Shown here: one piece after another, positions 3,396-64,000 of the stretch | Layout: the number at the start of each line of letters is the position of its first letter | Numbering within the stretch: the stretch's first letter is position 1 | Origin: Bdellovibrionota bacterium | GTDB lineage: Bacteria > Bdellovibrionota > UBA2428 | Reading direction: 5' to 3' | NCBI GenBank assembly: GCA_964201665.1 | Contig: CAXNEW010000002.1 | Coordinates: 9,807 to 73,806 of the forward strand | DNA: 64,000 nucleotides | Notes under the pieces: model-generated | What the model was told of the DNA's origin: nothing | Databases searched by the model: none | The model's input: only the letters and a program-made list of their open reading frames with translations | Made by a program: the position numbers and the translations under genes

Positions 3396-3396
3396 T

Positions 3397-3756: not shown

Positions 3757-3988
3757 TTGAGTCCTGAAATTTCGCGTTAAAATCGCCGAGGTCTTTTATG
3801 GAGTAGTGGTCCTCGGCCAGTTTTTTTCCTTCTCCGGACTTTTTGCGACCGGCGACAGCCTCACTGACTTTGCCTATTCCGAGCTGAAGATTTGACGCAA
3901 GGAGCTGGACAACGGCGATCGAGCCAGCCCCTACAAGAGCAATAAGTATTAAATATTCCGTTAAACTTTGTCCTTTTTTTGAATTCAT
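3740..3988 (-). CDS. flp: Flp/Fap family type IVb pilin
   Basis: MNSKKGQSLTEYLILIALVGAGSIAVV: Flp prepilin motif (G/xxxxEY) followed by a hydrophobic helix. 82 aa. Confidence 0.65.
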   Translation of the reverse strand: MNSKKGQSLTEYLILIALVGAGSIAVVQLLASNLQLGIGKVSEAVAGRKKSGEGKKLAEDHYSIKDLGDFNAKFQDSSENEK

Positions 3989-4080
3989 CCTTAAAAATCC
4001 TCCTAAATGGAAAGTGAATAAGCCAATAATTTGTCAGTTTGTAGATCAATGAATCGGTCGGGTTGTAGAATGGAAGTAAC

Positions 4081-9741: not shown

Positions 9742-9777
9742 AAAGACACCTAGTCCCTGATACAAAATAGGTCTTAT

Positions 9778-11587: not shown

Positions 11588-11592
11588 TTTAA

Positions 11593-19033: not shown

Positions 19034-19051
19034 GCGTTCAATTCTAACAGA

Positions 19052-19084
19052 AAATGAATACAAAAATGAATAGTAAAATGAATA
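19052..19084. promoter_or_regulatory. Three tandem 12-bp repeats (NNAAAATGAATA) immediately upstream of the HTH-HipA start, with a fourth copy at 19163-19171
   Basis: agAAAATGAATA caAAAATGAATA gtAAAATGAATA, one helical turn apart. Confidence 0.4.
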
Positions 19085-19293
19085 TTTTGGTGCATACAAA
19101 AGGTAAAAAAATCAAATATTTATATCATATATAGTCAAAAATTAAGCCCTTTTTGAACACTAAAATGAATAGAAAATTTTAGTTTGAGTTCGAAGTAAAG
19201 CGGAGGCGATCAAACCCAAAATCGAAACAACACCTCCCTAAGCGAGTGTTTCTCATTTCACAGTGAAGTGAAGTTTTGGCATAACCCATCCGG

Positions 19294-45957: not shown

Positions 45958-46053
45958 AAAAAAATGTAAGAATTCTGACGACTTAGGCGCGGCGCGTGAG
46001 GAGCGGTGTGTAATGTCTTTGAATTTAAAATAAAAAAGTACAATGAAGATGGA

Positions 46054-46926
46054 ATGTCCCATCTCCCTATCAGTGTCCAGGCCATACTTAATTTTGTTCC
46101 AGACCAACAAAATGGAAATTATTTAGATGTCACAGGTGGCGGTGGGGGCCATGTTGAGGCTTTTCTAAATTTAAAAAATCACTGGAATGTTGAAGTTTGG
46201 GATACAGATCCTGAGGCCGTGCAAAGATTGAGGTTGAAATTTTCTGACCTCATTTCAAAAAGGCAGGTAGGGGTTTTGCATCGAAATTTTAGAATAGGCC
46301 CCGATCAGAAAGATTTAATGTTTGATTTTATTTTGGCTGATCTTGGTGTTTCCAGTTTTCAGTTAGACGATAAATCGCGAGGTCTATCTTTGTTTTCGGA
46401 AACGCCTGTAGATTTCAGGCTCAATCCCATGGAGGGACCGAGTTTTCTGGAATGGCTAAACGCCCAATCTGAGAGTCAGTTGTGTGAGATTTTGGAACGA
46501 TTTGGTGATGAGCCTAAGGCAAAAAGAGCTGCTAAGTTTCTAAAGGAATCTCCTGTTGAAATTTTTTCGAGCGCCAAAAAATTGGCCGAACGGATTGGAG
46601 AAGTTCTTCAGTACGGGGCGCCCAGTCGTATTCATCCGGCCACACGGATTTTTCAAGCACTTCGAATTGCCGTTAACGATGAGTGGGGAGCTCTCGACTC
46701 CCTTTTGAGCTGGGCACCAAAACAGCTCAAGGTGGGCGGTTGTTTGGCCATGCTCACATTTCATTCAATTGAAGACGGTCGGGTGAAAAATGCCTTTCGA
46801 GACTTGGCCGCAGGCCACAGCTTCGATATTCTAACAAAGAAACCCCTGGTTCCTAGTGACAAAGAGATTTTGGAAAATCCAAGATCTCGAAGCGCAAAGC
46901 TAAGGGTTTTGAGGCGCGCAAGTTAG
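46054..46926 (+). CDS. rsmH: 16S rRNA (cytosine1402-N4)-methyltransferase RsmH
   Basis: YLDVTGGGGGH SAM-binding motif and overall MraW layout. Start placed at MSHLPISV. Confidence 0.85.
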   Translation: MSHLPISVQAILNFVPDQQNGNYLDVTGGGGGHVEAFLNLKNHWNVEVWDTDPEAVQRLRLKFSDLISKRQVGVLHRNFRIGPDQKDLMFDFILADLGVSSFQLDDKSRGLSLFSETPVDFRLNPMEGPSFLEWLNAQSESQLCEILERFGDEPKAKRAAKFLKESPVEIFSSAKKLAERIGEVLQYGAPSRIHPATRIFQALRIAVNDEWGALDSLLSWAPKQLKVGGCLAMLTFHSIEDGRVKNAFRDLAAGHSFDILTKKPLVPSDKEILENPRSRSAKLRVLRRAS

Positions 46927-46955
46927 GGGCCAGAAATTGTCTTTAGAATCGTAGA

Positions 46956-47339
46956 TTGGGGAGGGGATTTTCTAAAATGGTACGCATTAACCCTCGGAAG
47001 GATTTTGGTAAAACTTCTCGTCTCAAAAATTCAGCCGCCGCCTTAAATGTTTTTTGGTTGATTGCGATTTGTTCTGGTTTTTTTATAGTTCATATCTGGG
47101 CTCGAACTTGGGTGGTAAAAAAGAGCTATCAAATTGGTGACCTTCGAAATGAAGTGCGTAAATTAGAGGCCGATTTGGCCGCAAACGTTGTCGAAAAAAA
47201 CAAAATCATGGGGCCTAAAAATTTGCAATCCTGGGTAAGTAGATTTCAGTTAGAAGGTGTCTATTTTCAAAAACCTCAGGCCTCTCAGGTTTATTTTTTG
47301 AAGGCCGATCAACCTTCAGTAAAAGACGAGTCCCCCTAA
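46956..47339 (+). CDS. ftsL: FtsL-like cell-division protein
   Basis: Short cytoplasmic N-terminus, a single TM (VFWLIAICSGFFIVHIW), and a coiled-coil (VRKLEADLAANVVEKNK). Sits between rsmH and ftsI. Confidence 0.5.
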   Translation: MGRGFSKMVRINPRKDFGKTSRLKNSAAALNVFWLIAICSGFFIVHIWARTWVVKKSYQIGDLRNEVRKLEADLAANVVEKNKIMGPKNLQSWVSRFQLEGVYFQKPQASQVYFLKADQPSVKDESP

Positions 47340-49075
47340 TGGCTCGACTCAGGCTCACTTTTTTGGGCTTTGCTTTTTTTGTAAGTTTCGGGGTGGTTTT
47401 GTTTCGGGCCATGCGCCTTCAGCTTTTTCCTACCCAGGGAATCGAGCAAAGGGCCCAGCGCCAAATGAATACCCACGTTGAAATTGTAGGGCGGCGGGGG
47501 GCCGTTACCGATCGTCTTGGACGAGAGTTAGCAGTGAGTACAAATTCTCAGTCTATTTTTGTTAATCCTAAGCTTTTGAAGAACTCTAAAAAAGTAGCTA
47601 ATCGCCTAGGGAAAATCTTGGCTGTTGACCCCAAAGAAATTTCGAATCGGATAGAAAAAAATTCAGGGCGAAAATTTTTATGGATTGAGCGCCAACTTAA
47701 CAAGGCCCAACTCAAACGGCTCGAAAAACTTGGAATCACAGATCTTGAAGGGGTTGGCTTGCTGCCCGAGTACCGACGAGAATTTCCACAAGGGCCGCTT
47801 GCTGCTCACGTTGTGGGATTTGTGTCGGTTGATGGGCACGGGCTTGAAGGAATTGAAAAGCAGTTTAACGAAGAACTCTCAGGACTCACCCAACGTCTCT
47901 TAGTGAGTAGAGATGCCCTCGGTCGCCCCGTTTTTTCGCAGAAAGAGCAACTCCGTTTTGAACAAAACACAGGGTCCCGTGTTGAACTCACTTTAGATTC
48001 GCGCCTTCAGTATTCGGCAGAACAAGCACTTGAGGGCGCTGTACGTCAGAATCGCGCTGAAGGAGGATCCGTTATTGTTATGGATCCTCGAAATGGAGAA
48101 ATTCTGGCATTGGCTAATTTCCCAACTGTTGACTTAAATAAAGTCAAAGATTTTCCCACGCAGTTTCGACGAAATCGCGCCATCACAGATCCCATAGAAC
48201 CCGGAAGCGTAATTAAGCCATTGGTGGTGGCCAGGGCTCTTGAGGATAAAATTGTAAATTCAGAAACTGTTCTAAAAACGTGGGGCGGAACTCTTCGCGT
48301 TAAGGGACATCTCATTTCAGAATCTGACTCGAAACACTATTTTGAAAAAATGACCATTTCTGAAATTCTCAGGCTTTCAAGTAACGTGGGTATGGTAGTG
48401 CTGAAAGACCTTATGGGGTTTGCAAAAGTTGATGATACCTTTAAAAAAGTAGGAATCGGAAGTCGAACGGGTATTGAACTTTCGGGCGAATCCAAGGGGA
48501 TCTATCGGCCCCCCACAGCTGCCCAACTCGTAGAGCAGGCAACTCTTTCGTTTGGGCATGGTTTGGCAATGACCCCTCTGCAAATAGCTTCTGTTTACTC
48601 TACTCTTGCTAACGGCGGTTTTAGAGTTCGGCCGCATGTTATAAAACGCCTGGTCGAGGGAGAGGTTGATGGATTTACAGGATTTGAAACTCCGGAATCC
48701 GATTTGCGAGAGAAAGTTTTTTCCTCTGAAACGATGCGAATACTAGGGGGCCTTTTAACAAATGTTGTTGAAGCTGAGGGCACAGGGGGGCAGGCTCGCG
48801 TTGAGGGCTTTCAGGTCGCCGGAAAAACAGGAACCTCGCAAAGGGTGGATTACGAAAAAGGTGGATACGAGTCGGGTGCCTATATTTCTATATTTTCGGG
48901 TTTTTTTCCTGCGAAATCTCCGAGGTTTGTGATTACTGTGGTTATAGATAAACCTTCTGCGGGTTCTTACTATGGCGGTAAGGTGGCGGCTCCTGTTTTT
49001 TCGCAAATTGCCCGAGATGCTGCTCGGCTGGGCCTTTCGCATTCCGATAGAAAAATCCCACCGTTGTCGCGATAG
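47339..49075 (+). CDS. ftsI: Peptidoglycan D,D-transpeptidase FtsI (PBP3)
   Basis: N-terminal TM, PBP dimerization domain, and SxxK (GSVIKP), SxN and KTG (AGKTGT) motifs. Confidence 0.85.
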   Translation: MARLRLTFLGFAFFVSFGVVLFRAMRLQLFPTQGIEQRAQRQMNTHVEIVGRRGAVTDRLGRELAVSTNSQSIFVNPKLLKNSKKVANRLGKILAVDPKEISNRIEKNSGRKFLWIERQLNKAQLKRLEKLGITDLEGVGLLPEYRREFPQGPLAAHVVGFVSVDGHGLEGIEKQFNEELSGLTQRLLVSRDALGRPVFSQKEQLRFEQNTGSRVELTLDSRLQYSAEQALEGAVRQNRAEGGSVIVMDPRNGEILALANFPTVDLNKVKDFPTQFRRNRAITDPIEPGSVIKPLVVARALEDKIVNSETVLKTWGGTLRVKGHLISESDSKHYFEKMTISEILRLSSNVGMVVLKDLMGFAKVDDTFKKVGIGSRTGIELSGESKGIYRPPTAAQLVEQATLSFGHGLAMTPLQIASVYSTLANGGFRVRPHVIKRLVEGEVDGFTGFETPESDLREKVFSSETMRILGGLLTNVVEAEGTGGQARVEGFQVAGKTGTSQRVDYEKGGYESGAYISIFSGFFPAKSPRFVITVVIDKPSAGSYYGGKVAAPVFSQIARDAARLGLSHSDRKIPPLSR

Positions 49076-49114
49076 GTTTGCAGCCTTTCCTGAGGCAAAG
49101 TACTTTAGCTTTAA

Positions 49115-50605
49115 ATGTTCGATAAATTTCCCGAAATTGTTTTTGAAGGCCGTCGACTTATTTGGGATTCCAGACAAGTGCCTAATTCACAGGGCGAGTG
49201 GGTTTTTATACCCGATGATTCCTGGGTGAATGCAGAAATTAAACAAAAGTTACTTTCTCGAACTAACGCCAAATTCATAGGCGGAATTGGGACTGGCCTC
49301 GATCTCGAAGTCCCTAATCCAAGAAACCTTTTGGGAGAATGGGCGAGTTTAGCCCTTGGCGAACCCAGCAGAAAACTTAAGGTTCTTGGTGTAACGGGTA
49401 CAAATGGAAAAACAACTTCGACTGCGATTTTAAGGGCTCTTGCTCTGGCGACTGGTGAAAATGTGTGCGAACTCGGCACCTTGGGATTGCAATTGTGGGA
49501 ATCAAAAAATCCAAATTTCCCGACAGAAATAATTTCTACCGGGTTTACCACTCCAGAGGCGCCACAGCTTCATTTTCTGTTTTCACAGTTAATCAAAAAA
49601 AATGTGAAGGTTGTGGTTATGGAAGTGAGCTCTCATGCTTCAACGCTTGGGAGAATCTCGGGGGTCGATTTTGATGGAATGGTTTTTACTAATCTCACCC
49701 AGGACCATTTGGACTTTCATGAAACCCTTGAAAAATATGCTCTAGCAAAAATGAAGTTGTTTACAGATTTCTTGCCGCTTTCAAACAATCAAAGTTCAAA
49801 AATAGAAATTTCAAAAAAAAGTAAATTTGCGATTTTGAATCTTGGGGGGGACATTGCGTACCCTTTCAGTGCAGAAGTTCAAGGGCAGATACCTAAATCA
49901 GTTCGAGTCCAAAAGTTTACATCTGGAATTGATTTTAAAATCATAAATGAAACGGATTTAGGAATTGAAATTGATATTCAAAAGCAAGGGCCTTTGGAGC
50001 GGGTTGGGCGAGTTCAAATTCCTTTGCTAGGGGCCTACAATGCCGAAAATTTTTTCGGTGCTTACTTGCTCGCCAGTCAGGTTTTTCCAAATCTTTTGAA
50101 TTTTAATTTGCAAGATTCAGTTAGGAATTTTTCTGGAGTTAGCGGCCGAATGGAAAGTGTCAAAACCGGATCCCGGGTGTGGGTGGATTACGCACACACC
50201 CCCGATGCCTTAGAAAAATCTCTAAGAACCTTAGTGGATTTAAAGCAAAACAAAGAAAAAATTTGGATAGTTTTTGGGTGCGGTGGTGATCGCGACCGCA
50301 GTAAGCGGCCTCTAATGGGTAGAGTGGCGTCCCAACTTGCCGACGTAATTGTTTTGACTTCAGACAATCCTCGATCTGAGGACCCCAATCAAATTATTGC
50401 TGAAGTTAAGAATGGAATTTTGAATTCGACTTCGCAAAATTTTTACAGTGAGGTCGATAGGAAAAGGGCCATAGAGTACGCAATCAAAAGCCGAGCTCAT
50501 GGAGACTTTGTTCTCATCGCAGGAAAGGGGCATGAATCCGTCCAAATTTTTGCAGATAAAACGATTGAGTTTTCAGATCAAAAAATAGCCCGAGATTTTC
50601 TTTGA
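49115..50605 (+). CDS. murE: UDP-N-acetylmuramoyl-tripeptide ligase MurE
   Basis: GVTGTNGKTT P-loop, Mur ligase middle and C-terminal domains, and the DNPR motif (LTSDNPRSEDP). Confidence 0.9.
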   Translation: MFDKFPEIVFEGRRLIWDSRQVPNSQGEWVFIPDDSWVNAEIKQKLLSRTNAKFIGGIGTGLDLEVPNPRNLLGEWASLALGEPSRKLKVLGVTGTNGKTTSTAILRALALATGENVCELGTLGLQLWESKNPNFPTEIISTGFTTPEAPQLHFLFSQLIKKNVKVVVMEVSSHASTLGRISGVDFDGMVFTNLTQDHLDFHETLEKYALAKMKLFTDFLPLSNNQSSKIEISKKSKFAILNLGGDIAYPFSAEVQGQIPKSVRVQKFTSGIDFKIINETDLGIEIDIQKQGPLERVGRVQIPLLGAYNAENFFGAYLLASQVFPNLLNFNLQDSVRNFSGVSGRMESVKTGSRVWVDYAHTPDALEKSLRTLVDLKQNKEKIWIVFGCGGDRDRSKRPLMGRVASQLADVIVLTSDNPRSEDPNQIIAEVKNGILNSTSQNFYSEVDRKRAIEYAIKSRAHGDFVLIAGKGHESVQIFADKTIEFSDQKIARDFL

Positions 50606-50764: not shown

Positions 50765-52498
50765 ATGGCTCATTTAATTTTTGTTTTCTTGTTTATCGGA
50801 CTTACCGGTTGTTTCCAGCTTGATGTTGGCGTGCAGTCAGTGACTGCGGACTCTGCGGGATCCGCTCAAGAAGAAAATCAAAATGGCAATGTCGATCCGG
50901 TTGCTCCTGTTGCTCCGGGGGCTCCACCTGTAACGGTGCCAGTGACCCCTCCAGGAAGTGGTGCTGGTGGCAATCCTCCCGCCCCTGTTGTTGTCACCCC
51001 TCAAAACCCTGGAATGATCATTGACCCCACTCCCGCCGGTGCGCCTGTGAGTTATACCTTTTCGAATTTCCCTGTTTCCATGGGCACTACGTTGAGTTTT
51101 GGTGGTGTTGTTTTTGAATTTAGTCAGCCAGTGAGTTTTGGTAATTTTGTTACCGGAAGTACGGTGTATACGGGTGAACCCTGGGTCGTTGTGCCAAACG
51201 GGACCACAGTTACCATTAAGGTCTCGTCCAGTACGCCAGTAGGTGTCGAAATCAATCCGCGTACTCCTTTGAGGCAGGGATATCATTCGGGTGCCCCAAG
51301 GTATGATTCAAATCTTTCAACACCGGTGGATAAAATTGAAGTTGTCGGTGGTCAAATCCAAACTATTATTGTTGCTAAACATTTTTCAGGTAGCGCTCCG
51401 CTGGTTTCGGGAGAAGCACCGTATCTACGATATCGATATGTCGATAGACAAATAGCACTTTCAGTTTTGAATGCGGTCCCCCCTTGCGGTGGGGGCTGTG
51501 CGCTAAGACCCGCTTATTCTGGTAACCCCAATACCAAAACAGTATGGGATTTACGTGATTTTGATTTTTCCAAAATCGTGACCAATCGCGCAATTCCGCA
51601 GTATCTGCCCTCACCGGAACCTATTTACAATGAGATGGCTCGAGCCTTTAATTTTGATTATTCATTTAATCTATCAAGCGGATATGAGGTTTTAGGAGTT
51701 CAGAACGTGCCCCAAGGGTACGGTGCCCAGGCGGCGGGTCGTCGGGCAGTGCTCGCTGAGTTTGGTATGAATTTATCAACTCCTTTTGAACAACGACTTC
51801 GCTACCAACTTTATCTTTTGCAATACGGCGCCGACATCGCTCATTCGATAATCTACGGGAACATGTCATTTAACGAGGGTGGTGGGCACGGCCACGGTCG
51901 GGCGGCACCTTTTGCAATGTTTGCTGCGGCTTCTGGAAACGCGATTATTAAAGATGCAGCCAGATTTTGGATTCGTCTGCGTCCGAGTAGGGACGCCTAC
52001 ATGCCCTACAACAACGTGAATACCGGATTGCCTATGGTTGACGCAGGCTCTGGTGGATTCGGGGACATAAGTTTTATTTATGAATCAACCACTCCCGTTG
52101 CGGGGCAGCCCCGAATCCTTTGGGGATATGTCAATCAGTTTGGAAATGTCAGTCATGATCCCAATGGATTTATCGATGGAGGGCATTACAATATTGCCTC
52201 GGCTAATCCCTATTCTGGCTATTATGAAACTATAAATTCAGGAACAGCGACACTCATGAATTGGGTTGAGGCCAATCCGGCCATGGCGGAATTGGTGGAC
52301 GCTCGAATCGGTGAGTTTGCTCACCGTTATGCGACCGTTGGAACACACACCCTTCCAGATCCTCAAGCGGGCACAAGGCCTCATCTCGGTCAGCACCATG
52401 GGAGAAGAATTTATGATGGAGCCAATATTTTTATTCAACCTGTGTGCCAATATTTACAAAGGCACTCGGCTCCGAATTATTCGGGATGCCCTCAGTAG
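50765..52498 (+). CDS. Pro-rich lipoprotein (hypothetical)
   Basis: Lipobox FIGLTGC. N-terminal PVAPVAPGAPPVTVPVTPPGSG low-complexity region, then a ~450-aa globular part with no recognized motif. Confidence 0.5.
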   Translation: MAHLIFVFLFIGLTGCFQLDVGVQSVTADSAGSAQEENQNGNVDPVAPVAPGAPPVTVPVTPPGSGAGGNPPAPVVVTPQNPGMIIDPTPAGAPVSYTFSNFPVSMGTTLSFGGVVFEFSQPVSFGNFVTGSTVYTGEPWVVVPNGTTVTIKVSSSTPVGVEINPRTPLRQGYHSGAPRYDSNLSTPVDKIEVVGGQIQTIIVAKHFSGSAPLVSGEAPYLRYRYVDRQIALSVLNAVPPCGGGCALRPAYSGNPNTKTVWDLRDFDFSKIVTNRAIPQYLPSPEPIYNEMARAFNFDYSFNLSSGYEVLGVQNVPQGYGAQAAGRRAVLAEFGMNLSTPFEQRLRYQLYLLQYGADIAHSIIYGNMSFNEGGGHGHGRAAPFAMFAAASGNAIIKDAARFWIRLRPSRDAYMPYNNVNTGLPMVDAGSGGFGDISFIYESTTPVAGQPRILWGYVNQFGNVSHDPNGFIDGGHYNIASANPYSGYYETINSGTATLMNWVEANPAMAELVDARIGEFAHRYATVGTHTLPDPQAGTRPHLGQHHGRRIYDGANIFIQPVCQYLQRHSAPNYSGCPQ

Positions 52499-52563
52499 AC
52501 TCACTAAAAAATATTAACACAAAATTAATCAAACTCGCTCTTCAAGTTTGTCATAATGATGGA

Positions 52564-54462
52564 ATGCAAGGCTTTCGCTCTTTGCTTTTTTCTTTGCGAA
52601 ATGGAATCGGGATTTTTTCCCTTGTTTTAACTGTGTCCTGCGGCAACGACGCGCTTTTTGAAAAATACGAACAGGCTGCACGCAAACAGGACGCTCTGGA
52701 TTCGCTTACACAAGAACTTTTCTTGCGGAGTCCGATAATCGACAGCAATGGTAGAATCGTCACTGCTGATCAGGACCCCGATCGAGTTCCAAGGTCCCAA
52801 GTTGAGATTTTGGGCTTGCTTGATTTAATGAAGCCCCTGGAGGCCGAATATCTAAAGGTCTACCAGTCGAGTTCCAGAAAACGAGCCCCGACATTTTTTG
52901 AATGGGCTGGAAGGCGAATTCCCTGGGAAAACCCCGATTTTCAAATTTTTATGGCTTATTTCCATGGCATGCGCGCGATGGATTATTTTAAGGCAATTTC
53001 GTCTCAACCCATTGAATGGAATTTTTTAGTCGAAGGACAAAGTTCATTAAATTCCAAGCTTGCAATTTTCGCTAGTCAAACGGGTTCCCCCTTTGACACT
53101 TCCTATGACTTTCTTGCAAAAGAAATTAATTTTTATTCAAGCGGTGAGGGTGAACTTGGTAAATATAATCCAGTTGATGAGTCAGACGCCATTTATCACG
53201 AGGTCGGACATGTGGCTATGCACGCTCTTAGGGCAGCACTTGTAACTCTTCCGCCGGGCTTAAATTCTGATCTGGATTCAATTCAAGAGGCCATTTCTGA
53301 TTTTCTTGCAGCCGCAGTTTCAGGCGATGACTCTGTTTTGACCTACTTTTCGGCTAATGCTCAAAGCCTGGGGGTGACCGATTCCCGAACACTTAATCCT
53401 CAAATACGTACCCTCGACAACGACCTTTATTTTCCTAAAGCCTATCGCAATGATGTTTACCTGGATGCTCGCGTGGTTGCCTCAGCTTTAAATGATTTAC
53501 GACGCTACCTTACTGGAGAAAACATCAAGCAATTGAGTCGATGTTCGGGTTCAGCCTGCAACATAGAACTTATTAACCCTGCCATCACGAGGGATGAGGC
53601 TTTTGTAAAGGTTTCGAATTTAGCCTTGTCTGCCTTTGTTGACTTACTTGAAGGGTCTACGTTTCAAGATTATGGCCGCACACTTTTTTCATATTGTTCG
53701 AGCCCACTCTTTTGCCCAGGGACCGAAACGGCTGAAGTTTTTAGAAGAATTTTAGTGGGTCGGGGTCTTTTAAGTCCTCTTTCGCCGGCGCTTCTGTCTA
53801 GCCCCGCTGACATCATTTGGAATTCGGATCCGTTAATTGCCGATCTTGTAGTTTCACAAGACGTGGGTTTTATGGAATTTCCTGGGGACCCGGGATTTTC
53901 AAACGAAAATGGTGTCATCGAACCTTGTGAAGTTCTTCTGATTTTTCCGAAAGTCAAAAACAACACTGCTGCCAGATCGCGATCTCTTGCGCTGAGGGGT
54001 TGGGAAATAGAACTTGGCGGCGTAACGGGATTTGGTGAATTTAAAAATCCGGCCACAAATCAGGCCGTTGAAAGAATCACGGTTTCTGGTTCAAATAAAC
54101 CGGAAATTAAGTTTTTTGGATGGTTTGACCCCGGTGAAAATTCTTTAGATTCAACAGAGTTAATTCGAAACTCGGATTCTATTTGGTACCAGGAAGCCGG
54201 GGGATCCTATTTTGCTCGTAAAATTTCGTTAAATGAGTTTCCGTCAGCAGTAGGCTGGCTGGTTCGAGCCCCCTCGCAAGCAGGAGCCATTGCGACTGCT
54301 CGTTTTAAAATGACTGCGCAAATCGATAATTCGAGTCAATTTTTGGAAATCTCCAGCGATAATCCAAACGTCCTCGAAGATACTTTTATTCGTCCCAATG
54401 GGGTTGATTTTCCCTCTCTCCAGGTTTCTGCGGTTCCTGCAAAAAGTTTTTGCCAAAATTAA
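52564..54462 (+). CDS. Putative zinc metalloprotease lipoprotein (HEXXH)
   Basis: Lipobox LVLTVSC. DAIYHEVGHVAMH contains an HEXXH zinc-binding motif. Start placed at MQGFRS to remove the overlap with the upstream gene. Confidence 0.5.
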   Translation: MQGFRSLLFSLRNGIGIFSLVLTVSCGNDALFEKYEQAARKQDALDSLTQELFLRSPIIDSNGRIVTADQDPDRVPRSQVEILGLLDLMKPLEAEYLKVYQSSSRKRAPTFFEWAGRRIPWENPDFQIFMAYFHGMRAMDYFKAISSQPIEWNFLVEGQSSLNSKLAIFASQTGSPFDTSYDFLAKEINFYSSGEGELGKYNPVDESDAIYHEVGHVAMHALRAALVTLPPGLNSDLDSIQEAISDFLAAAVSGDDSVLTYFSANAQSLGVTDSRTLNPQIRTLDNDLYFPKAYRNDVYLDARVVASALNDLRRYLTGENIKQLSRCSGSACNIELINPAITRDEAFVKVSNLALSAFVDLLEGSTFQDYGRTLFSYCSSPLFCPGTETAEVFRRILVGRGLLSPLSPALLSSPADIIWNSDPLIADLVVSQDVGFMEFPGDPGFSNENGVIEPCEVLLIFPKVKNNTAARSRSLALRGWEIELGGVTGFGEFKNPATNQAVERITVSGSNKPEIKFFGWFDPGENSLDSTELIRNSDSIWYQEAGGSYFARKISLNEFPSAVGWLVRAPSQAGAIATARFKMTAQIDNSSQFLEISSDNPNVLEDTFIRPNGVDFPSLQVSAVPAKSFCQN

Positions 54463-55874: not shown

Positions 55875-56078
55875 ATGAAAAAACACCTTAAGAAAAACAA
55901 AACTAAACTATCTGCAAAAAGTGGCCAAAGCTCTGTTGAATACTTGCTCATTATCGGAGCCATGGTTGCCATCGTAACAATTTTTGGTAGCACAATCCGA
56001 AACCGGATTGGCGGTATCACTGACAAATTGTTCTCAAACGTAGACTCCAGCATCAATAACCTGACCCAAGGCAAATAA
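55875..56078 (+). CDS. flp: Flp family pilin
   Basis: SAKSGQSSVEYLLIIGAMVAIVTIF. RBS AAGAGGAA. Confidence 0.75.
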   Translation: MKKHLKKNKTKLSAKSGQSSVEYLLIIGAMVAIVTIFGSTIRNRIGGITDKLFSNVDSSINNLTQGK

Positions 56079-56095: not shown

Positions 56096-56308
56096 ATGGG
56101 CTTAGTCCGAAGAAAAACTCGAAGTTTTTCTTCGGGCCAGGCCCTTATTGAATATGTTCTACTTGTTGCCCTTCTTTCGGGCCTTTCGTTGGCTTTTGTT
56201 CGTTTTTTTACATCCGATCTTTTTCGACCCGGTCTTAACCGACTTCCAGCCAAAGTAAATCTCTGTGTTTCGCACTCCCGAGAGGCAGGCACCAATGGTT
56301 GTCGGTAA
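56096..56308 (+). CDS. Flp-like pilin paralog 2
   Basis: RSFSSGQALIEYVLLVALLSGLSLAFV. Confidence 0.5.
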   Translation: MGLVRRKTRSFSSGQALIEYVLLVALLSGLSLAFVRFFTSDLFRPGLNRLPAKVNLCVSHSREAGTNGCR

Positions 56309-56537
56309 ACTCCAAAGACCTCACAGAAAACGAGGCCAGACAGCCGTTGAGTATTTATTGCTAATGGCAGTGGTGGTTGGAGTTATAACTGTTTTTCAAC
56401 AATTTTTTGTTGATAACCTCGTGGAGGATATTGAAAAGGTTAAGTTGAGTACTCAGTCGCGTGCGTGGAAGGGCGGGGCTAAGGACTTAAAAGAGCTATA
56501 CCGAAACGGATGTGGGAAATCTAATTTATGCCGTTAA
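56295..56537 (+). CDS. Flp-like pilin paralog 3
   Basis: HRKRGQTAVEYLLLMAVVVGVITVF. Start placed at MVVGK. Overlaps the previous gene by 14 nt. Confidence 0.5.
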   Translation: MVVGKLQRPHRKRGQTAVEYLLLMAVVVGVITVFQQFFVDNLVEDIEKVKLSTQSRAWKGGAKDLKELYRNGCGKSNLCR

Positions 56538-57175
56538 AGTTTATGCCATTGAAGTGTAAAAGTTCAAGAAAAGGTCAGACCCTAATTGAATTTGCTTTAG
56601 TATCTATCCTTTTTATTTTTCTTTTGGTGCTTACCTTTAATGCCATTCTTGCTTTTTCGGTTCAGCAGTATCTTTCCTACGCAACTTTCATGTCGGCTCG
56701 GGCTTATCAGGCTGCAGGGGACAATCCGGCAGACCAGGTCGCTCGAGCTCGGGGTATTTTGAGCCAGTTTATTCCAGGCCTACCGCCTGGAGGGACCGAC
56801 AATTTTGGAAGCCCGGGTATACCTATTCGATTTAGCCTTTTTCCGCGCCCGATTGCCTTTCTTCAGCAGATTCAGATTCCTAACCCACAACCCGGAGATG
56901 AAGGCTCTGGTATTCCAGACCCCCCGCGGGCGGTGCGTTTGGTTTTCAACATGCCTTTGGCGCAGATCCCATTGGGCCAACTTGTTCGCGAAAAACTGGG
57001 CCTGATACGCCTAGAATCTCAAAGTTTTTTGGGGCGCGAAGTATCAACCGAAGAGTGCAGGGGGTTTTTTCGAGGATTTTTGTCGGCCTATCGAATTCCG
57101 GGAGCTCCAGCCAATCACCAAAATTTTGTAGGTAGCCCGAGTTCATCGCTGCTCATGGAAGACAATGGTTGTTAG
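56528..57175 (+). CDS. TadE/TadG-like pseudopilin
   Basis: SRKGQTLIEFALVSILFIFLLVLTF N-terminal TadE motif. Confidence 0.55.
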   Translation: MPLKFMPLKCKSSRKGQTLIEFALVSILFIFLLVLTFNAILAFSVQQYLSYATFMSARAYQAAGDNPADQVARARGILSQFIPGLPPGGTDNFGSPGIPIRFSLFPRPIAFLQQIQIPNPQPGDEGSGIPDPPRAVRLVFNMPLAQIPLGQLVREKLGLIRLESQSFLGREVSTEECRGFFRGFLSAYRIPGAPANHQNFVGSPSSSLLMEDNGC

Positions 57176-57630: not shown

Positions 57631-58614
57631 GTGAAAAAACTAAACAACGGTTACTTTTTTATAAAACTGGTCACCGTAGGTTTTTCATTGTTTTTCCAAT
57701 TCCAAGTTTGGAGTATCGATCAAAAGGGATGGATTCAGTGCCGTGAACTTCATGAAAGACTTGGGCAAGTCGCAGGCCGACTTGAGAGTCGACTCCAAAG
57801 AGACACCGGCCTGTTACAAGATTTAAATGCAAGAATTCCCGAAATTTCCGGAGTCGAAAAGCAGCTCAATGACATTGCCGATGGCACTCAGGGCGCCAAC
57901 AATGCTGGAGTGTATTTGGTCACGCTACCTGATGGTAGGAAACAAGTTTTAAAACTTGTTTCCGAAGCAGGGTCAGACATGAAAAAACTTGGTGACGATT
58001 TCTGGCCAGCAAATGGAGATTTTCCCACAGATCCAAGAAATATTTTCCGGTCTTCTGCTGAAATTCAAACGGCATTGGCACGGCTGGGTATGGCTCCACA
58101 GATCCAGGGTCTCATCCCGCCTGGCAGTTTTGAAGCTTGGTACCTGGCGAACAAATCCAAATTCGTCGGTACTCGTATTGAGGAACTCATGAACAATCCC
58201 AACAGGAAAAGAATTGTTGGGGTGTTTATGGATCCTATTGAAGGAAGTCCCTGGGCACTTTCACGAGCACCTAGCACGGCGGAGCTTAAAATGAATCGCA
58301 TTCGGGATTTCCCGGGTTTTCTGAAAGAGTGGGATATCGATAAACTTAAAATTGTTTTAAAAAATGTTGGGACCCTAAAAAAGAATGTGAGACAGTTAGG
58401 GATAAATCCTGTGGATTTACAGATAATGCTCGGCCCTGATGGAATTCCTGTTTTAGTTGATTTGGATGTTTATAGAATAGGTGTTGATATTTCCGCGTTA
58501 GATCTGCAGATTAAAACTCAAGCAAGAAAAATTATTGAATATTATGAATTTGCCCATAGAAAAGAATTTACAAGAGAGGAAAGACTCGGGCTCATTTCAC
58601 TTGCCCTAGAGTAG
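57631..58614 (+). CDS. Hypothetical protein within the tad locus
   Basis: N-terminal TM/signal (FFIKLVTVGFSLFF). A weak, unverified kinase-like stretch (GINPVDLQIMLGPDGIPVLVDLD). Confidence 0.4.
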   Translation: MKKLNNGYFFIKLVTVGFSLFFQFQVWSIDQKGWIQCRELHERLGQVAGRLESRLQRDTGLLQDLNARIPEISGVEKQLNDIADGTQGANNAGVYLVTLPDGRKQVLKLVSEAGSDMKKLGDDFWPANGDFPTDPRNIFRSSAEIQTALARLGMAPQIQGLIPPGSFEAWYLANKSKFVGTRIEELMNNPNRKRIVGVFMDPIEGSPWALSRAPSTAELKMNRIRDFPGFLKEWDIDKLKIVLKNVGTLKKNVRQLGINPVDLQIMLGPDGIPVLVDLDVYRIGVDISALDLQIKTQARKIIEYYEFAHRKEFTREERLGLISLALE

Positions 58615-58628
58615 TCTGGCTAAACAAA

Positions 58629-59489
58629 TTAAAGTAAATTAAAAACTGTTTCGGGAGTGTTTTGCGCGGAATCAAACATTTCTAAATTATTGACTCCCAT
58701 TAAATAGATATTATTTCCTTGGTCGATAAAAATTTCAGGTTTTAAGGCATAGAGTCCTGCTAATTTCAGCTTGGTTTTTAGTTCCACAATTTGTGTTTGA
58801 ATGGCCCTAGGGCATTTGGAAAACGAACAATCTAATTTTCTAACTGAAATGTGGCCCTTACTCATAAGACCGAATAAATCCTCATCGGAGGCTAACTGCT
58901 TTTTCCAATCTTTAAATTTGCTACTTCTCGCAAAGAAATCTTTCATTTTTGGGTCATACAGGATGCCGACTGCCAGTGTGGGAATTTTAAACTCGGCCAT
59001 TTTTTCAAAGACTTGGGCCATCTTTTGAATGAACTCAGACCCAGTCTTAAAGCCCGAATTCGCCAGGTGAATCGAAAAAAGTTGGATTGTGACTTTAACG
59101 GGTTTCCCAGGGGACTGAACTTGGGCTCCGAGCTCGATATCTAGGGCTTTAAAATAGTGTTCTCCAGAAAAAGGGGATGCGGGAAGGTGAGTGGTGCCCA
59201 AAAATTCATAAAGTAATGTGTGGTCAAAAATAGGGATTGGGGTTGAGGGGTAGGCCAGTGGATTTGAGACAAGTTGCGAAAGTTTGGTGGCGGCATTGGA
59301 GTCGTTTCCGACACTTAAAATTTTATTCACGTCGCCTGGCTGGCATAAATCTTCACCCATTCCAAACGTCGTTGAACAAATGCTGACAAACCCAAGGGTT
59401 AGAAAAACTTTTAAATAACTCAAAAATTTTTCACAGGAATTTTTCATCAATTTAGCTCTTGGGTTAGTTAAAATAATGCGCAATGTCAA
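58629..59489 (-). CDS. Hypothetical secreted protein (opposite strand within the tad locus)
   Basis: Signal peptide (FLTLGFVSICSTTFG). No recognized motif. Confidence 0.4.
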   Translation of the reverse strand: MTLRIILTNPRAKLMKNSCEKFLSYLKVFLTLGFVSICSTTFGMGEDLCQPGDVNKILSVGNDSNAATKLSQLVSNPLAYPSTPIPIFDHTLLYEFLGTTHLPASPFSGEHYFKALDIELGAQVQSPGKPVKVTIQLFSIHLANSGFKTGSEFIQKMAQVFEKMAEFKIPTLAVGILYDPKMKDFFARSSKFKDWKKQLASDEDLFGLMSKGHISVRKLDCSFSKCPRAIQTQIVELKTKLKLAGLYALKPEIFIDQGNNIYLMGVNNLEMFDSAQNTPETVFNLL

Positions 59490-59527: not shown

Positions 59528-60526
59528 ATGGGTGACGCAACCTGGCGGGGCCCCGAGATCACCTCCAAGACAAGAACTGTAAAGAAATCTGGGGCTTATT
59601 CCGAAAACGTCTTCGTGAACCAGTCACGTGCATTTTTAGTGAGCTTAATTTTTGCCGGTGTGGCCATGCTTCTTGTTTATTTTTACATTTCCGAAAAAGA
59701 AGCAGCCATAAAGGCAGAGTTTGGAACCGATGTGGCTGTGGTTGTTGCCGCTCGGGATATCAACGAATTTGAACAGATTCAGGCCAACATGGTGACCACT
59801 CAAGTTGTTCCAAAAAAGTTTGCTCAACCCGGAAGTAATTCTGATCCTGGAGTCTTTTTAACTAGCGGATCTGTGGCAGCTGCCCCCATCCGCAAAGGTG
59901 AACAGATTCTATTGACCAAAGTTCTGCTAAAGGGAGCCGAAACCGGACTTTCAACTCAAGTTGGAGTTACCAAGCGAGCCCTTTCAGTTCCAGTGAACGA
60001 AGTCACCGGAGTTACAAAACTCTTAAAACCCGGCGATCGAGTGGACATTGTTTCTAATGTTCCGTACCAAAATAAAACCGGTGGGCAAGAATCAGAAGTA
60101 AAAACAATTCTTCAAGATATAAACGTGCTCGCAGTCGGCGAAGTTATTCAAAATCAGATTCCCTCAGTTTTTGAAGAGGATCCACTCACGGCGACTAAAA
60201 GAGCGGTCAATTTGCGGGGAAGCCGGGCCTTTAACACTGTAACTATTGAGGTGAGCCCTCTTGAGGCTCAATCATTGATTTTTGTAATTCAAAGTGGAGC
60301 AGAGCTTTTTTTAACATTGCGCAATCCCATTGATCGACAGGTGAGCTCAATTCCTACCACCACAGTTGATGAAGTTTTGGGCGAAAACTCACGGAAGGCC
60401 CGCGGCGGAGCGAGGTCTCTAGCGGCAGAATCTCCGGTAAGGCTGCCGGCAAGTATTCCAGCGGCAAGGCCTGCTACGCCGCCACCTAATCCATGGTCCC
60501 AAGGAGGAGGCGCTTTCGTAAAATAG
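59528..60526 (+). CDS. cpaB: Flp pilus assembly protein CpaB/RcpC
   Basis: N-terminal TM, SAF-like region (VAVVVAARDINEFEQI), and the RcpC beta-domain. Confidence 0.75.
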   Translation: MGDATWRGPEITSKTRTVKKSGAYSENVFVNQSRAFLVSLIFAGVAMLLVYFYISEKEAAIKAEFGTDVAVVVAARDINEFEQIQANMVTTQVVPKKFAQPGSNSDPGVFLTSGSVAAAPIRKGEQILLTKVLLKGAETGLSTQVGVTKRALSVPVNEVTGVTKLLKPGDRVDIVSNVPYQNKTGGQESEVKTILQDINVLAVGEVIQNQIPSVFEEDPLTATKRAVNLRGSRAFNTVTIEVSPLEAQSLIFVIQSGAELFLTLRNPIDRQVSSIPTTTVDEVLGENSRKARGGARSLAAESPVRLPASIPAARPATPPPNPWSQGGGAFVK

Positions 60527-60528
60527 TT

Positions 60529-62337
60529 ATGGCAAAAATTAATTTGAAAATGTTTATGGCCTTGGTTCTTCTGCTTTCGGCGAAGGCCTTCGCTCAGGAT
60601 ACGACTAGCGTGGGGAGTCCGCCCACTGAGCCCATTGCAACTCAGCCGCCGCAGGTAAATGCGGCAACAACCAATTCGGGTACGAATGGAGTTGTCCCTG
60701 AAACTCCTGCATTTTCGTTTAGCGCTGGGGATCGCCCTTTTAAGTCACTTTCAAAAACTGCGATTCCGTCTCCAGTTGCAAACAAAGTGGGCGGGATTGC
60801 AGATACAAATATCGAAGCTGTTTTAGAAAACCGACTCGATTTAAAGCCTGAACTGGGTTTTGAGGATTTGTTTTTAACTAAAAAGTCGAGCACCGTTCTT
60901 GATATTCAAAACCTAGGCCGCGACGTGAAAGAACTATGCTCTAAACTCACAGTGCTGGGAATCTTGCCAGGCGGTGAAGTTGATAATTCGGGAGGTTTTC
61001 GTGTGACCGCGGGGGACCAAGCCGGGTCCACCCAGGTTTTAGTCTATGACGGAAAAGCCTCCACGGATTGCAAAGAACTTGGCAAACTCTTGAAAGTTTA
61101 TCGAGTCACGGTATCAGAGCAGGATTTGTTTGCTCTGCTACAAGAACTCAAAACACTTATTGGCTCTGTCGAAGGAATTGAAATTAGAATCGTCGGAGAC
61201 AAAATTATTGTAGACGGAAATATTTTAATTCCCAAAGAAATGAGAAGGGTTCTGGCCGTTTTGAATCGTTATATTTCAGAAAAAAAGCCCATCGTGAATT
61301 TGGTAGAGATGTCACCTCTTACGCTCAAACTCATTGGCGAAAAAATGGAAGAAGAAATTGCGGGTGGTAAAGAACGCCAGCGCGATATCAAAGTCAAAAT
61401 CCTAAATGGTAGATTTTTTCTTGAAGGCAACGTGGATAAACGCGTAGATCGCGAAGTCGCTGAAAAAATTTGCCAAAGTTATATTTCTGAACGTTACCAA
61501 ATGGACGCCCCTGCAGCCGGCGGACGTCTTGAGAAACCTACCTTTGCCAGTCTTGGAGAATGCGTGTCGATGATTCGAATTCGCGCAGGACAACCCAAAG
61601 ATCCTGACCCCATTATCAATGTCAGAATTGATTTTGTTACTATAAACAGAGATTATTTAAAAACTTTTGACTTTAGATGGGCGCCCGGGATTAGCGCCGA
61701 GGGTGGCGTGGAGTTTGACTCTGATGCCGGAAGATTCGTGAACCGATTTATCGGGACACTTTCAAATTTGTTTCCAAAACTCGATTCACTCTCTCAGAAT
61801 GGTAATGCTCGTACATTGAAAACAGTTTTTGTGCCCGTTCGAGATGGGGACGACGGAAATGGCCAGCCTGCCGAAGCGACCGTGAGAGAAACTCTGAATT
61901 TAGGATTTAGCACTGCGGGGACTCCGACCGCCCCGGGGCAATCGGGTTCAACTCCGGTAACTACATCAGTTTCGATTCGGGCGAGGTCAATTTCTGGTTC
62001 CGATCGTATCAATCTTGGTATCAAAGCAGTTCAGACCGAAGTCAAAAGAATTCGGAGTGATGGTCCCTCGGATACGCTCGAAAACTCCGTCGACACTCAG
62101 GTTGTGATTCCAAACGGTGAAAGTGCGGCTGTAGGTGGACTCATTGCCGAACGTCGACAGGTGAGTTACGGGCGTGGCCCCTCCAATGAAGGCACAGTAA
62201 CTATTTTTAAATTAGATAGGGCTCACCAGTTTAGGGACGACAAAAGTCAGTTTATTGTTTTTGTGACGCCAACAAAACTCCGAACTACTACAGAAGGAAC
62301 CGAAGTTTTAAAACGTAAATTTCGGTTAAGAAGGTAA
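60529..62337 (+). CDS. cpaC: Flp pilus secretin CpaC/RcpA
   Basis: Signal peptide MAKINLKMFMALVLLLSAKAFAQD. Strong RBS AAGGAGGAGG. C-terminal secretin motif (VVIPNGESAAVGGLIAE ... FVTPTKL). Confidence 0.75.
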   Translation: MAKINLKMFMALVLLLSAKAFAQDTTSVGSPPTEPIATQPPQVNAATTNSGTNGVVPETPAFSFSAGDRPFKSLSKTAIPSPVANKVGGIADTNIEAVLENRLDLKPELGFEDLFLTKKSSTVLDIQNLGRDVKELCSKLTVLGILPGGEVDNSGGFRVTAGDQAGSTQVLVYDGKASTDCKELGKLLKVYRVTVSEQDLFALLQELKTLIGSVEGIEIRIVGDKIIVDGNILIPKEMRRVLAVLNRYISEKKPIVNLVEMSPLTLKLIGEKMEEEIAGGKERQRDIKVKILNGRFFLEGNVDKRVDREVAEKICQSYISERYQMDAPAAGGRLEKPTFASLGECVSMIRIRAGQPKDPDPIINVRIDFVTINRDYLKTFDFRWAPGISAEGGVEFDSDAGRFVNRFIGTLSNLFPKLDSLSQNGNARTLKTVFVPVRDGDDGNGQPAEATVRETLNLGFSTAGTPTAPGQSGSTPVTTSVSIRARSISGSDRINLGIKAVQTEVKRIRSDGPSDTLENSVDTQVVIPNGESAAVGGLIAERRQVSYGRGPSNEGTVTIFKLDRAHQFRDDKSQFIVFVTPTKLRTTTEGTEVLKRKFRLRR

Positions 62338-62339
62338 GA

Positions 62340-64000
62340 GTGGTGTCGGCTTCCAACCTTGGCCCCAATGGTCACATCATCGCAGTAATCGGCGGCAAGG
62401 GTGGGGTTGGTAAAAGCGTGTTTTCGGCAAACTTAGCTGTGGCCATGGCCCAAGATGCAAAGATTGGTCCCGCCCTTTTGGATTTTGATCCCAACGCGAA
62501 TTCTGACATTCAGTTAATTTTGGGTGTTAAACAAGTTACGGGTTTTGGCGATCAAATCGTCGAAGGCAAAATTCGCGATTCAGCTGAACTTAAAAAATTT
62601 TTCAAAGCCATTCCGGTAGGTCCAAACATTTTGCCACTTCACTACTTGCAGATGTGCCAAAACGGCGATCGCTTGTTGACTGAAGCCGATGACAAAATTG
62701 AATCTGCACTTAAACTCATTCGAAAAACTTTTCCGGTCACTATTGTTGATTGCGGGAGTCGCATTGAAGGAGGGGTGCTAAAGGTTCTCGATTTAGCCTC
62801 TGTTATTTTGGTAGTTACCAATCCCGAGATTCTCGTTTTAAATCAGACCCGAAAAATTATTGATAAACTTCAAGTTTCTCTTTTTCCTCAGGAAATAACC
62901 AAAGTCGTTGTGAACAAAATGACTGCGGGAAATCCCTATTCGCCACAATTTATAGAACAAAGCTTAAAAAGGCAGATTGTCTCAGTCATTGCTGATGATG
63001 CCCCCACAGCACAAGGTGCCCTTGCCAAAGGCGCGCCCATGGTTGTGGTGGCTCCGCAGTCGGCTGTAAGTAAATGTTATTTTGCTTTAAGTCGCGTTCT
63101 TATAGATAAGGGACTTTTAGTCCAAGCGGCAGCGACTCAACGAAAGCCGAGGCCACCAACTCAATCGTCTGCGCCAGCCGGAGCCGCCTCGGGTGAGGCA
63201 GCAGCAAACTCCTCAGCAACGGCTTCAACGGGAGCAGATGCAGGGCCTGCCATGGGCCGTTTTGGCAGAGACCCGCGGGATGCTCGAAGTCTTTTTAAGG
63301 TGCGTATGCACGGACTGCTTGTTGAGCGAATGGACCTCAAGGCCGAGCAAATTGGACGCAATGTGAACCCGCAAAAAGTAAAGGAAATGCGCGAAAAGGC
63401 AACACGCATTTTGTCGGATTTGTTAAATGCAGAAGATCATCAGTGGAAGGCCCGCGCAGACACCCAACAAATAATTAAAGAGATTTTGGACGAAACTTTT
63501 GGAATGGGGCCTTTAGAAGACTTGTTGGCTGACGATACGGTAACCGAAATTATGGTCAATCGTGCTGACAAAATTTACATTGAAAAAGCAGGACGCTCAA
63601 TAAAGTCAGCTGTGACATTTTCGAGTAATGCTCAACTAAAAACAGTTATTGAGAGAATTGTAAGCCCCATGGGCCGAGTGATCAATGAATCGAGCCCCTA
63701 TGTTGATGCCAGGCTTCCTGATGGAAGTCGGGTTCACGCCATTATTCCTCCATTGGCAATTGATGGGCCGATGGTAACTATTCGGAAATTTCCAAAAAGA
63801 AGACTCGGACCTGATGACTTACTCAAGTTTGGAACCCTGACCCCTGAAATGGTGGATTTTTTAAGGATGTGCATTGAAATCAGGGCCAACGTTTTGATCA
63901 GTGGTGGCACGGGTTCTGGTAAAACTACCCTTCTTAATATTTTAAGCGGATTTATTCCCGCAAACGAACGCATTTTAACTGTCGAAGACGCCGCCGAATT
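62340..64000 (+). CDS. cpaE-cpaF: CpaE/TadZ-like ParA/MinD ATPase fused in frame to CpaF/TadA (3'-partial)
   Basis: GTG start. HIIAVIGGKGGVGKS deviant Walker A. About 250-aa ParA-like domain. A ~45-aa Ala/Ser/Pro/Gln-rich linker. Then CpaF N-terminal region (GMGPLEDLLADDTVTEIMVN) and Walker A GGTGSGKTT. No stop codon in this frame from 62340 to the window end. Confidence 0.6.
   Translation, partial: MVSASNLGPNGHIIAVIGGKGGVGKSVFSANLAVAMAQDAKIGPALLDFDPNANSDIQLILGVKQVTGFGDQIVEGKIRDSAELKKFFKAIPVGPNILPLHYLQMCQNGDRLLTEADDKIESALKLIRKTFPVTIVDCGSRIEGGVLKVLDLASVILVVTNPEILVLNQTRKIIDKLQVSLFPQEITKVVVNKMTAGNPYSPQFIEQSLKRQIVSVIADDAPTAQGALAKGAPMVVVAPQSAVSKCYFALSRVLIDKGLLVQAAATQRKPRPPTQSSAPAGAASGEAAANSSATASTGADAGPAMGRFGRDPRDARSLFKVRMHGLLVERMDLKAEQIGRNVNPQKVKEMREKATRILSDLLNAEDHQWKARADTQQIIKEILDETFGMGPLEDLLADDTVTEIMVNRADKIYIEKAGRSIKSAVTFSSNAQLKTVIERIVSPMGRVINESSPYVDARLPDGSRVHAIIPPLAIDGPMVTIRKFPKRRLGPDDLLKFGTLTPEMVDFLRMCIEIRANVLISGGTGSGKTTLLNILSGFIPANERILTVEDAAE

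Follow-up and report, generated by a model that had tools for sequence, protein, structure and literature searches.

Does the last reading frame of this stretch of DNA encode one polypeptide that joins the two ATPases of a Tad pilus system, TadZ/CpaE and TadA/CpaF, or does the apparent fusion have another explanation? The frame, here called tadZA, lies at the 3' edge of a stretch of 64,000 nucleotides (the window) from contig CAXNEW010000002.1, assigned to a Bdellovibrionota bacterium. An initial annotation made from the letters of the window had proposed an in-frame fusion of the two ATPases, and the open frame, the motifs and the Pfam and NCBIfam domains confirm it. We consider it highly probable that the open reading frame (ORF) is a genuine tadZA gene, the orthologue of Bdellovibrio bacteriovorus Bd0111 in an uncultured Bdellovibrionota-like bacterium, and that its product, as homology suggests, is a motor that docks at a cell pole. 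The polypeptide of 739 amino acids (aa) consists of a TadZ/CpaE module without the atypical receiver domain, a disordered linker and a complete CpaF/TadA ATPase. Its features in the window are as follows.

62340..64000 (+), tadZA ORF; the first 553 of 739 codons are inside the window, the frame is open and the public gene call is identical
62367..63134 (+), TadZ/CpaE-type ParA/MinD ATPase module, residues ~10-265 (Pfam, NCBIfam, CpaE profile, AlphaFold2, Foldseek)
62391..62417 (+), deviant Walker A GGKGGVGKS, residues 18-26, with signature Lys20 and P-loop Lys25 (translation, homologue alignment)
63123..63254 (+), disordered low-complexity linker rich in Ala, Ser, Pro and Gln, residues ~262-305 (AlphaFold2, homologue alignment)
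63255..64000 (+), TadA/CpaF motor ATPase: N-terminal helices, N-terminal domain and start of the ATPase core, continuing beyond the window (Pfam, CpaF match, Foldseek)
63903..63929 (+), TadA Walker A GGTGSGKTT, residues 522-530 (translation); G522-T529 invariant in 118 homologues

Reading frame and extent of tadZA

Translation of 62340-63998 (+) gives 553 codons with 0 stops, as had been claimed for the frame up to the window edge; the other two forward frames contain dozens of stops over the same interval. By our own estimate an open stretch of 553 codons would arise by chance with p ~1e-13 (stop-codon frequency ~0.053 at 46% GC). The gene runs past position 64000 and ends at window-equivalent position 64559 on the parent of the ORF, an 83.6-kb contig in the European Nucleotide Archive (short-read metagenome contig k141_474715; locus L001, where tadZA occupies 10001-12220). 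The public gene call P0001 (MVSASN..., 739 aa) has 100% identity to the window ORF and the same start, GTG 62340, which lies 3 bases past the TAA of the secretin gene (ends 62337) and 5 bases past a GAAGG. Both Walker A motifs and the low-complexity linker are found in the translation at the places given by the initial annotation. Its statement that no receiver-like domain stands at the N-terminus also holds, with Walker A starting at residue 18 and the secretin gene ending immediately upstream.

Conservation and authenticity of the fusion

A homologue search of 5.8 billion proteins identified P0001 and 119 further proteins among the matches listed. At least 118 proteins (118 of the 120 listed) are full-length homologues of 704-755 aa with 43-80% identity, and both Pfam sets, ParA/CbiA and T2SSE, occur in nearly all of those listed. 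Residue conservation is given below for an alignment of these 118 homologues. Comparison with orthologous loci, proposed as a check on the initial annotation, shows the fusion kept as a single ORF over both modules in nine independent genome loci, with frames taken from frame-aware tblastn coordinates. Seven of these (L002-L008) are Bdellovibrionota-type and include the complete genome of Bdellovibrio sp. HCB288; the other two (L015 and L024) are metagenome-assembled genomes (MAGs) of Omnitrophota.

An assembly or sequencing artefact, by which two genes, tadZ and tadA, were run together through loss of a stop codon or through an indel in the GC-rich linker, is effectively excluded by the recurrence of the single ORF in at least 118 homologues and nine independent loci, and we regard it as exceedingly improbable. 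The window is a short-read metagenome contig, and a related public contig (L082) shows tadZA split by frameshifts, so errors of this kind do occur in the gene family; the L082 error, however, works in the opposite direction and breaks a fused gene. Complete Bdellovibrio genomes are among the loci with the single ORF, the frame is kept throughout although the linker varies from 34 to 60 aa, and the full-length protein has been seen for the B. bacteriovorus orthologue.

P0127, a 252-aa protein from L082, was considered as a standalone, unfused form without a receiver domain and was rejected. The public gene call lists it as ParA-like, but frameshifts have broken up a fused gene there (L082 4001-5007, the end of a contig that seems rich in errors), and the linker and the TadA N-terminus resume 18 nt later in another frame. 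Other short database matches to the TadZ module may be frameshift artefacts of the same type and were not counted as unfused.

The N-terminal module

The Pfam models CbiA, AAA_31 and ParA cover residues 12-221 and the NCBIfam MinD models residues 12-265. The deviant Walker A, G-G-K-G-G-[VI]-G-K-S, is kept in 114-118 of the 118 homologues, the switch and Walker B aspartates are intact, and D48, D50, D137 and G139 are invariant. AlphaFold2 models the module with a predicted local distance difference test (pLDDT) score mostly >90. Foldseek superimposes it on the ParA-family structure 3ea0 with a template modelling (TM) score of 0.87; this is the sole match to the N-terminal module in the list of 50 for the full model, which is filled by secretion ATPases. 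The atypical receiver domain found in TadZ/CpaE is absent from the window protein.

The fold and the deviant Walker A xKGGxGK[ST] with both lysines are shared with MinD, and the module could in principle be an independently recruited MinD/ParA-family ATPase, the whole then being a MinD-TadA chimera with a function unrelated to Tad positioning. This we judge very unlikely. The module sits at the tadZ position, with rcpA on one side and the TadA part on the other, and in 40 loci from other phyla the same query finds the immediate upstream neighbour of cpaF. Several family members are labelled 'septum site-determining protein MinD' by the Joint Genome Institute, and the MinD models of NCBIfam score higher than the curated TadZ-related one, but each of them stays below its curated cut-off (minD_arch, 74.4 bits against 201.75; minD_bact, 68.4 bits against 212.9). 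A profile built from the ATPase domains of 40 canonical CpaE proteins encoded next to cpaF gives the window module 148.9 bits, about twice the MinD scores, and the B. bacteriovorus module 173 bits.

Three points weigh against a TadZ assignment. The members of the CpaE profile were found by similarity to the same query domain, which introduces a selection bias into its scores; the curated TadZ-related model (TIGR03815, CpaE_hom_Actino) gives 40 bits, under its cut-off of 154; and the best solved sequence relatives of the module are archaeal MinDs (1hyq, 54.6 bits), and the 20 PDB sequence matches at E<=1e-3 are MinDs or members of the ParA family, none of them a chain with the name TadZ. The nearest unfused relatives point the other way. 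An exhaustive search of 1.84 billion representatives places them among proteins of ~385-420 aa that are matched at residues ~125-370, and two unfused relatives, P0155 (410 aa) and P0166 (680 aa), have a Pfam receiver domain followed by the ATPase domain; another unfused match of ~400 aa, P0150, has no Pfam model at E<=1e-5. The tadZ position, the CpaE profile score at about twice the MinD scores and the receiver-plus-ATPase architecture of the nearest unfused relatives together indicate that the N-terminal module derives from TadZ/CpaE and is not a generic MinD. It differs from MinD in further respects: its C-terminus leads into the linker and TadA, so that there is no free end for a membrane-targeting helix, and its gene lies in a pilus locus and not in minCDE.

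Two of the fused proteins have an altered TadZ Walker A. That of L008 (4011-6176) reads GGKPGEGKS, and that of the Omnitrophota locus L024 (2368-4545) reads TKGGVGRT, with GVGRT for GVGKS and hence Arg in place of the P-loop Lys. Outside the Bdellovibrionota clade the handling of ATP by the TadZ module may thus be non-uniform.

The C-terminal module

The fragment of the C-terminal module inside the window matches Pfam T2SSE with 106 bits, and T2SSE/TadA-type models cover residues ~342-553. The catalytic core is almost wholly invariant among the homologues, including E549/D550, G597/E598 and T613-H615...H623 (residues beyond 553 lie outside the window and are taken from P0001/L001). The complete C-terminal part reaches 420 bits (E 1e-124) with the solved CpaF of Caulobacter crescentus (8rkd/9e24) and <=133 bits with archaeal GspE, FlaI and VirB11; residue ~348 of the window protein aligns with residue 108 of the 501-aa CpaF chain 9e24. 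The AlphaFold2 model of the module superimposes on CpaF 8rjf in Foldseek with a target-normalised TM score of 0.84. The module thus has the T2SSE core motifs Walker A, Asp box, Walker B and His box, is closest to CpaF and is encoded in a tad locus beside the gene of the TadB platform protein, as is characteristic of TadA/CpaF. Comparison with separate CpaE and CpaF sequences, in line with another of the checks first proposed, gives each half of the chain a homologue.

Linker and internal ATG

The low-complexity stretch AAATQRKPRPPTQSSAPAGAASGEAAANSSATASTGADAGPA comprises residues 263-304; the linker is put at 43 residues or, with the disordered region as a whole, at about 45. In the AlphaFold2 model pLDDT falls below 50 only at residues 1-3 and 276-305; the predicted TM score (pTM) of 0.58 means that the modelled packing between the two modules is not confident. 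Between residues 258 and 316 the homologues have 34-60 aa; the family's linker has much A, K, P and S, and at residues 281-300 the column conservation is 0.17 with 43% gaps. The linker has semi-conserved flanks: it opens with L..LA..(K/R)KP.RP and closes with G(K/R)EP.DP(R/W). In the window protein the basic-proline motif (K/R)KPxRP follows the helix L..LA (63123-63160, residues ~262-274). Judged from the alignment, a partner such as RomR could recognise these flanking sequences as short linear motifs. Since the nucleotide-binding residues and the catalytic core are invariant and the linker is free in length and sequence, both modules appear to be under selection within a translated fusion; an error in a single contig would not produce this pattern.

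An in-frame ATG at 63252, near the end of the linker, is preceded by a weak AGGG 6 bases upstream, and an internal start at this codon, combined with termination of the upstream product, had been named as something that would overturn the initial annotation. The gene might in that event yield two products, the full fusion and a free TadA, and a 1:1 coupling of the modules would be only partial. Several homologues do have Met within a few residues of this site (...GRMGKEP, ...GKMGKEP), but it is not a conserved residue: in many others F, I or V stands there or Met is missing, and the entire subgroup of 43-47% identity is without it, so that the 118-homologue alignment contains no conserved internal start at the linker end. 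The preprint on the B. bacteriovorus orthologue records TadZA-msfGFP at full length without reference to any smaller product, and separate tadA paralogues already exist elsewhere in that genome, so an internal product would not be needed there. We therefore think two products unlikely, while for this one gene an extra TadA-only product from ATG 63252 is conceivable and counts against an exclusively fused form.

Relation to B. bacteriovorus TadZA

The window ORF is another ordinary orthologue of a protein that has been described. In B. bacteriovorus HD100 this protein was named an 'atypical TadZA fusion ATPase' (Tesseur, Denise, Santin, Laloux, 8 July 2026, bioRxiv 10.64898/2026.07.08.737194), in a preprint that itself cites an earlier reference for the fusion, and the initial view that characterized Tad systems have TadZ and TadA as two distinct proteins is accordingly out of date. 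In HD100 a flexible linker joins TadA to a TadZ region that has no atypical receiver domain, and TadZ together with this linker binds RomR, a polarity hub (bioRxiv 10.64898/2026.07.08.737194). TadZA-msfGFP was seen at full length by immunoblot and moves from pole to pole with a RomR-dependent bias to the invasive pole. A tadZA deletion was not obtained, and depletion of tadZA-tadB by CRISPR interference (CRISPRi) abolished predation. Separate tadA paralogues are found elsewhere in the B. bacteriovorus genome (bioRxiv 10.64898/2026.07.08.737194). A search of the preprint's text for a few terms on taxonomic distribution found none of them.

A second protein search finds both domain sets in B. 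bacteriovorus proteins of 738-739 aa. Residues 7-736 of P0001 align with residues 3-702 of P0306 (739 aa, from B. bacteriovorus, not confirmed as the HD100 allele) with 45% identity. Because the window protein aligns from end to end with the B. bacteriovorus TadZA already described, the fusion as such is not new. Like Bd0111, it has the three-part chain and full-length homology, and the organisation of its locus corresponds. There are also differences. The linker sequences of the two proteins are unrelated, B. bacteriovorus TadZA has a C-terminal tail of ~37 aa that is absent from the window protein, and the window organism belongs to another, uncultured lineage (44% GC) that is known here from sequence alone. 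The best matches in species-representative genomes have only ~50% identity to the window protein. In public annotation the fused proteins go under the names 'TadA', 'CpaF' or 'MinD', with no indication of the fusion in any case.

Split pairs, taxonomic spread and origin

The canonical arrangement as two genes, a cpaE with the receiver and then cpaF, occurs in about 40 loci from other phyla (Nitrospirota, Bacillota, Chloroflexota, Acidobacteriota, Actinomycetota, Planctomycetota and others). In these 40 loci cpaE lies between the secretin genes and tadA, which is the position of the TadZ module in the window. The canonical pairs of C. crescentus and Aggregatibacter actinomycetemcomitans are built of homologous modules in the same order within the tad locus but are encoded by two genes, whereas the modules of the window protein are covalently joined and have no receiver domain. 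The sequence upstream of the ATPase domain is <=20 residues long in nine of nine fused loci and 124-196 residues long in most split loci, and Pfam recognises a receiver in this additional stretch of two unfused relatives of ~400-680 aa. Among the loci sampled, fusion is accompanied by receiver loss throughout.

The fusion is not confined to B. bacteriovorus and occurs across the Bdellovibrionota: the top 150 representatives include about 13 clusters at 50% identity, and the fused clusters carry the names Bacteriovoracia, Pseudobdellovibrionaceae, Bdellovibrionales, Bdellovibrionia and Oligoflexia-labelled MAGs. The two Omnitrophota loci, L015 (secretin 8131-9954, fusion 9986-12145) and L024 (secretin 696-2366, fusion 2368-4545), also encode a fused TadZ-TadA without a receiver domain. 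These proteins of 719-725 aa have the same architecture as the window protein and directly follow rcpC and the secretin gene; their identity to the window protein is 24-26% in the N-terminal and 48-50% in the C-terminal module. They differ from it in a linker that is not of low complexity, and the secretin of their loci has a C-terminal TonB_C domain. In L024 the gene that comes next codes for a protein of 800 aa for which Pfam gives no match.

Bootstrapped neighbour-joining trees of the TadA part support a Bdellovibrionota clade (92/100) and the Omnitrophota pair (100/100). A single clade of all fusions has a support of 0-1/100. The tree fits independent fusions in Bdellovibrionota and Omnitrophota and is not proof of them; in distance trees of one domain, poor resolution or horizontal transfer can look the same as an independent fusion. 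It is possible, although in our judgement somewhat short of probable, that fusion and receiver loss are ancient across the Bdellovibrionota and had a second, independent origin in Omnitrophota, a lineage suspected of predation or parasitism. The covalent coupling of motor and positioning module would then be a convergent adaptation to prey attack, with KKPxRP as the landmark-binding element.

The tad locus and surrounding genes

The gene order is three flp genes, a tadE-like gene, a pseudopilin-like gene, two lineage-specific ORFs, rcpC, rcpA, tadZA, tadB and an RHS gene. Coordinates are those of the window, except for the last three entries, which are on the parent contig.

55875-56078, 56096-56308 and 56265/56295-56537 (+), three Flp-type pilin genes in tandem (Pfam Class_IIIsignal, Flp1_like)
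56528-57175 (+), TadE-like gene (Pfam TadE)
57169/57178-57621 (+), second pseudopilin-like gene, SGQALVEF followed by a hydrophobic segment (translation)
57631-58614 (+), lineage-specific ORF, 327 aa, no Pfam match
58629-59489 (-), lineage-specific ORF, 286 aa, signal-peptide-like N-terminal segment, no Pfam match
59528..60526 (+), rcpC/cpaB (Pfam RcpC, SAF; NCBIfam TIGR03177 pilus_cpaB, 151.9 bits, cut-off 71)
60493..62337 (+), rcpA/cpaC secretin (Pfam Secretin, weak BON match; public gene call starts at 60529)
L001 12217-13083, tadB (T2SSF, 288 aa), overlapping the tadZA stop codon
L001 13168-14838, RHS/DUF6531/YD-shell protein, 556 aa, directly after tadB
L001 14848-15195, protein of 115 aa, apparently secreted (signal-peptide-like N-terminal segment), Gly-, Ala-, Pro- and Gln-rich

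The three Flp sequences have processing motifs of the type G/Qxx[VI]EY (G/QSSVEYLLI, G/QALIEYVLL and G/QTAVEYLLL). The context of tadZA and tadB is that of an operon. The order rcpC-rcpA-tadZA-tadB-RHS is found in L002 and L005-L007; L004 starts within rcpA and keeps rcpA-tadZA-tadB-RHS. The rcpA secretin is syntenic in L002-L007, and the RHS gene is kept downstream of tadB in L002 and L004-L007. For the two ORFs at 57631-58614 and 58629-59489 tblastn finds no equivalent in the loci of related Bdellovibrionota, and neither tadC nor a prepilin peptidase gene lies near the tadZA locus. Two Pseudobdellovibrionaceae-type loci have two tandem copies of rcpC before the secretin gene (L002 2071-4009, L003 6518-8274); the window has one copy.

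In HD100, bd0113-bd0109 have the order rcpC-rcpA-tadZA-tadB-RHS (PMC3818213; PMC5430801). Within the host-interaction (hit) locus bd0109 encodes the RHS protein and bd0108 the small hit protein, while tadC (bd0470) is elsewhere and TadV is absent (PMC3818213; PMC5430801; bioRxiv 10.64898/2026.07.08.737194). The tad locus 1 / hit locus of B. bacteriovorus therefore shares with the window its gene order, a tadC outside the locus and the lack of TadV, and the RHS gene and 115-aa protein downstream in the window locus mirror bd0109 and the small bd0108. The three tandem flp genes and the lineage-specific ORFs set the window locus apart.

Between a cell-wall gene cluster at 46006-50605 (mraW, a penicillin-binding protein and a Mur ligase) and the tad locus lie two ORFs without a Pfam match, 50765-52498 (577 aa) and 52444-54462 (672 aa), both on the (+) strand. 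A Pfam survey of the window ORFs up to ~25 kb found ordinary chromosomal genes (RecO, LepA, PyrB, CarAB, RecG and others), and the scanned remainder of the window has 42-46% GC. No receiver-domain protein occurs among the window ORFs scanned, a set that leaves out those at ~25-46 kb. Other genes of the window encode a HipA-like kinase of 460 aa (17717-19099, -) and a sigma-54 activator of 331 aa (4929-5924, -) in which AAA+ and lid domains only, and no receiver or DNA-binding domain, were detected.

Proposed mechanism

By homology with the CpaF/TadA proteins that have been studied, the TadA part would form a hexameric motor that works on the TadB/TadC platform and powers the Flp pilus both as it extends and as it retracts (bioRxiv 10.64898/2026.07.08.737194). 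The TadZ module tethered to it would bind ATP and probably dimerize, as its homologues suggest. From the behaviour of the orthologue, the TadZ module, along with the first part of the linker, would dock the motor on a polar landmark, which in B. bacteriovorus is RomR; RomR, with its degenerate receiver domain, may supply in trans the receiver function that the fused protein has lost. The pilus machine would thereby be assembled and powered at one pole. The fusion would fix a 1:1 ratio and close proximity of the positioning module and the motor.

The coupling of localization and motor put forward in the initial annotation is the same hypothesis as that in the preprint, where coupling of positioning and motor in one polypeptide is raised as an idea (bioRxiv 10.64898/2026.07.08.737194). 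Since the signature lysine is intact, the tethered TadZ modules might, speculatively, form ATP-dependent sandwich dimers, either within a TadA hexamer or between hexamers. Through such dimers the nucleotide state of the positioning module could conceivably be linked to assembly of the motor. Two considerations tell against the model as a whole. A search confined to the 83.6-kb contig did not identify romR, and for this organism expression, the size of the product, both ATPase activities, the oligomeric state and the landmark partner are all inferred.

Significance

As a single orthologue of a family present in public databases, the window protein carries little weight alone and will not surprise Bdellovibrio specialists. 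The value of the comparison lies in the family: its alignment points to selection on both nucleotide-binding sites and on the short motifs that flank a free linker, and these conserved features could guide mutagenesis of TadZA in B. bacteriovorus. Annotation pipelines currently overlook the TadZ half of the fusion, and a check for it is suggested. The occurrence of the same architecture in Omnitrophota, together with a different secretin, is of comparative value. The remaining angle is an evolutionary one, of a phylum-wide trait in the Bdellovibrionota with possible convergence in Omnitrophota.

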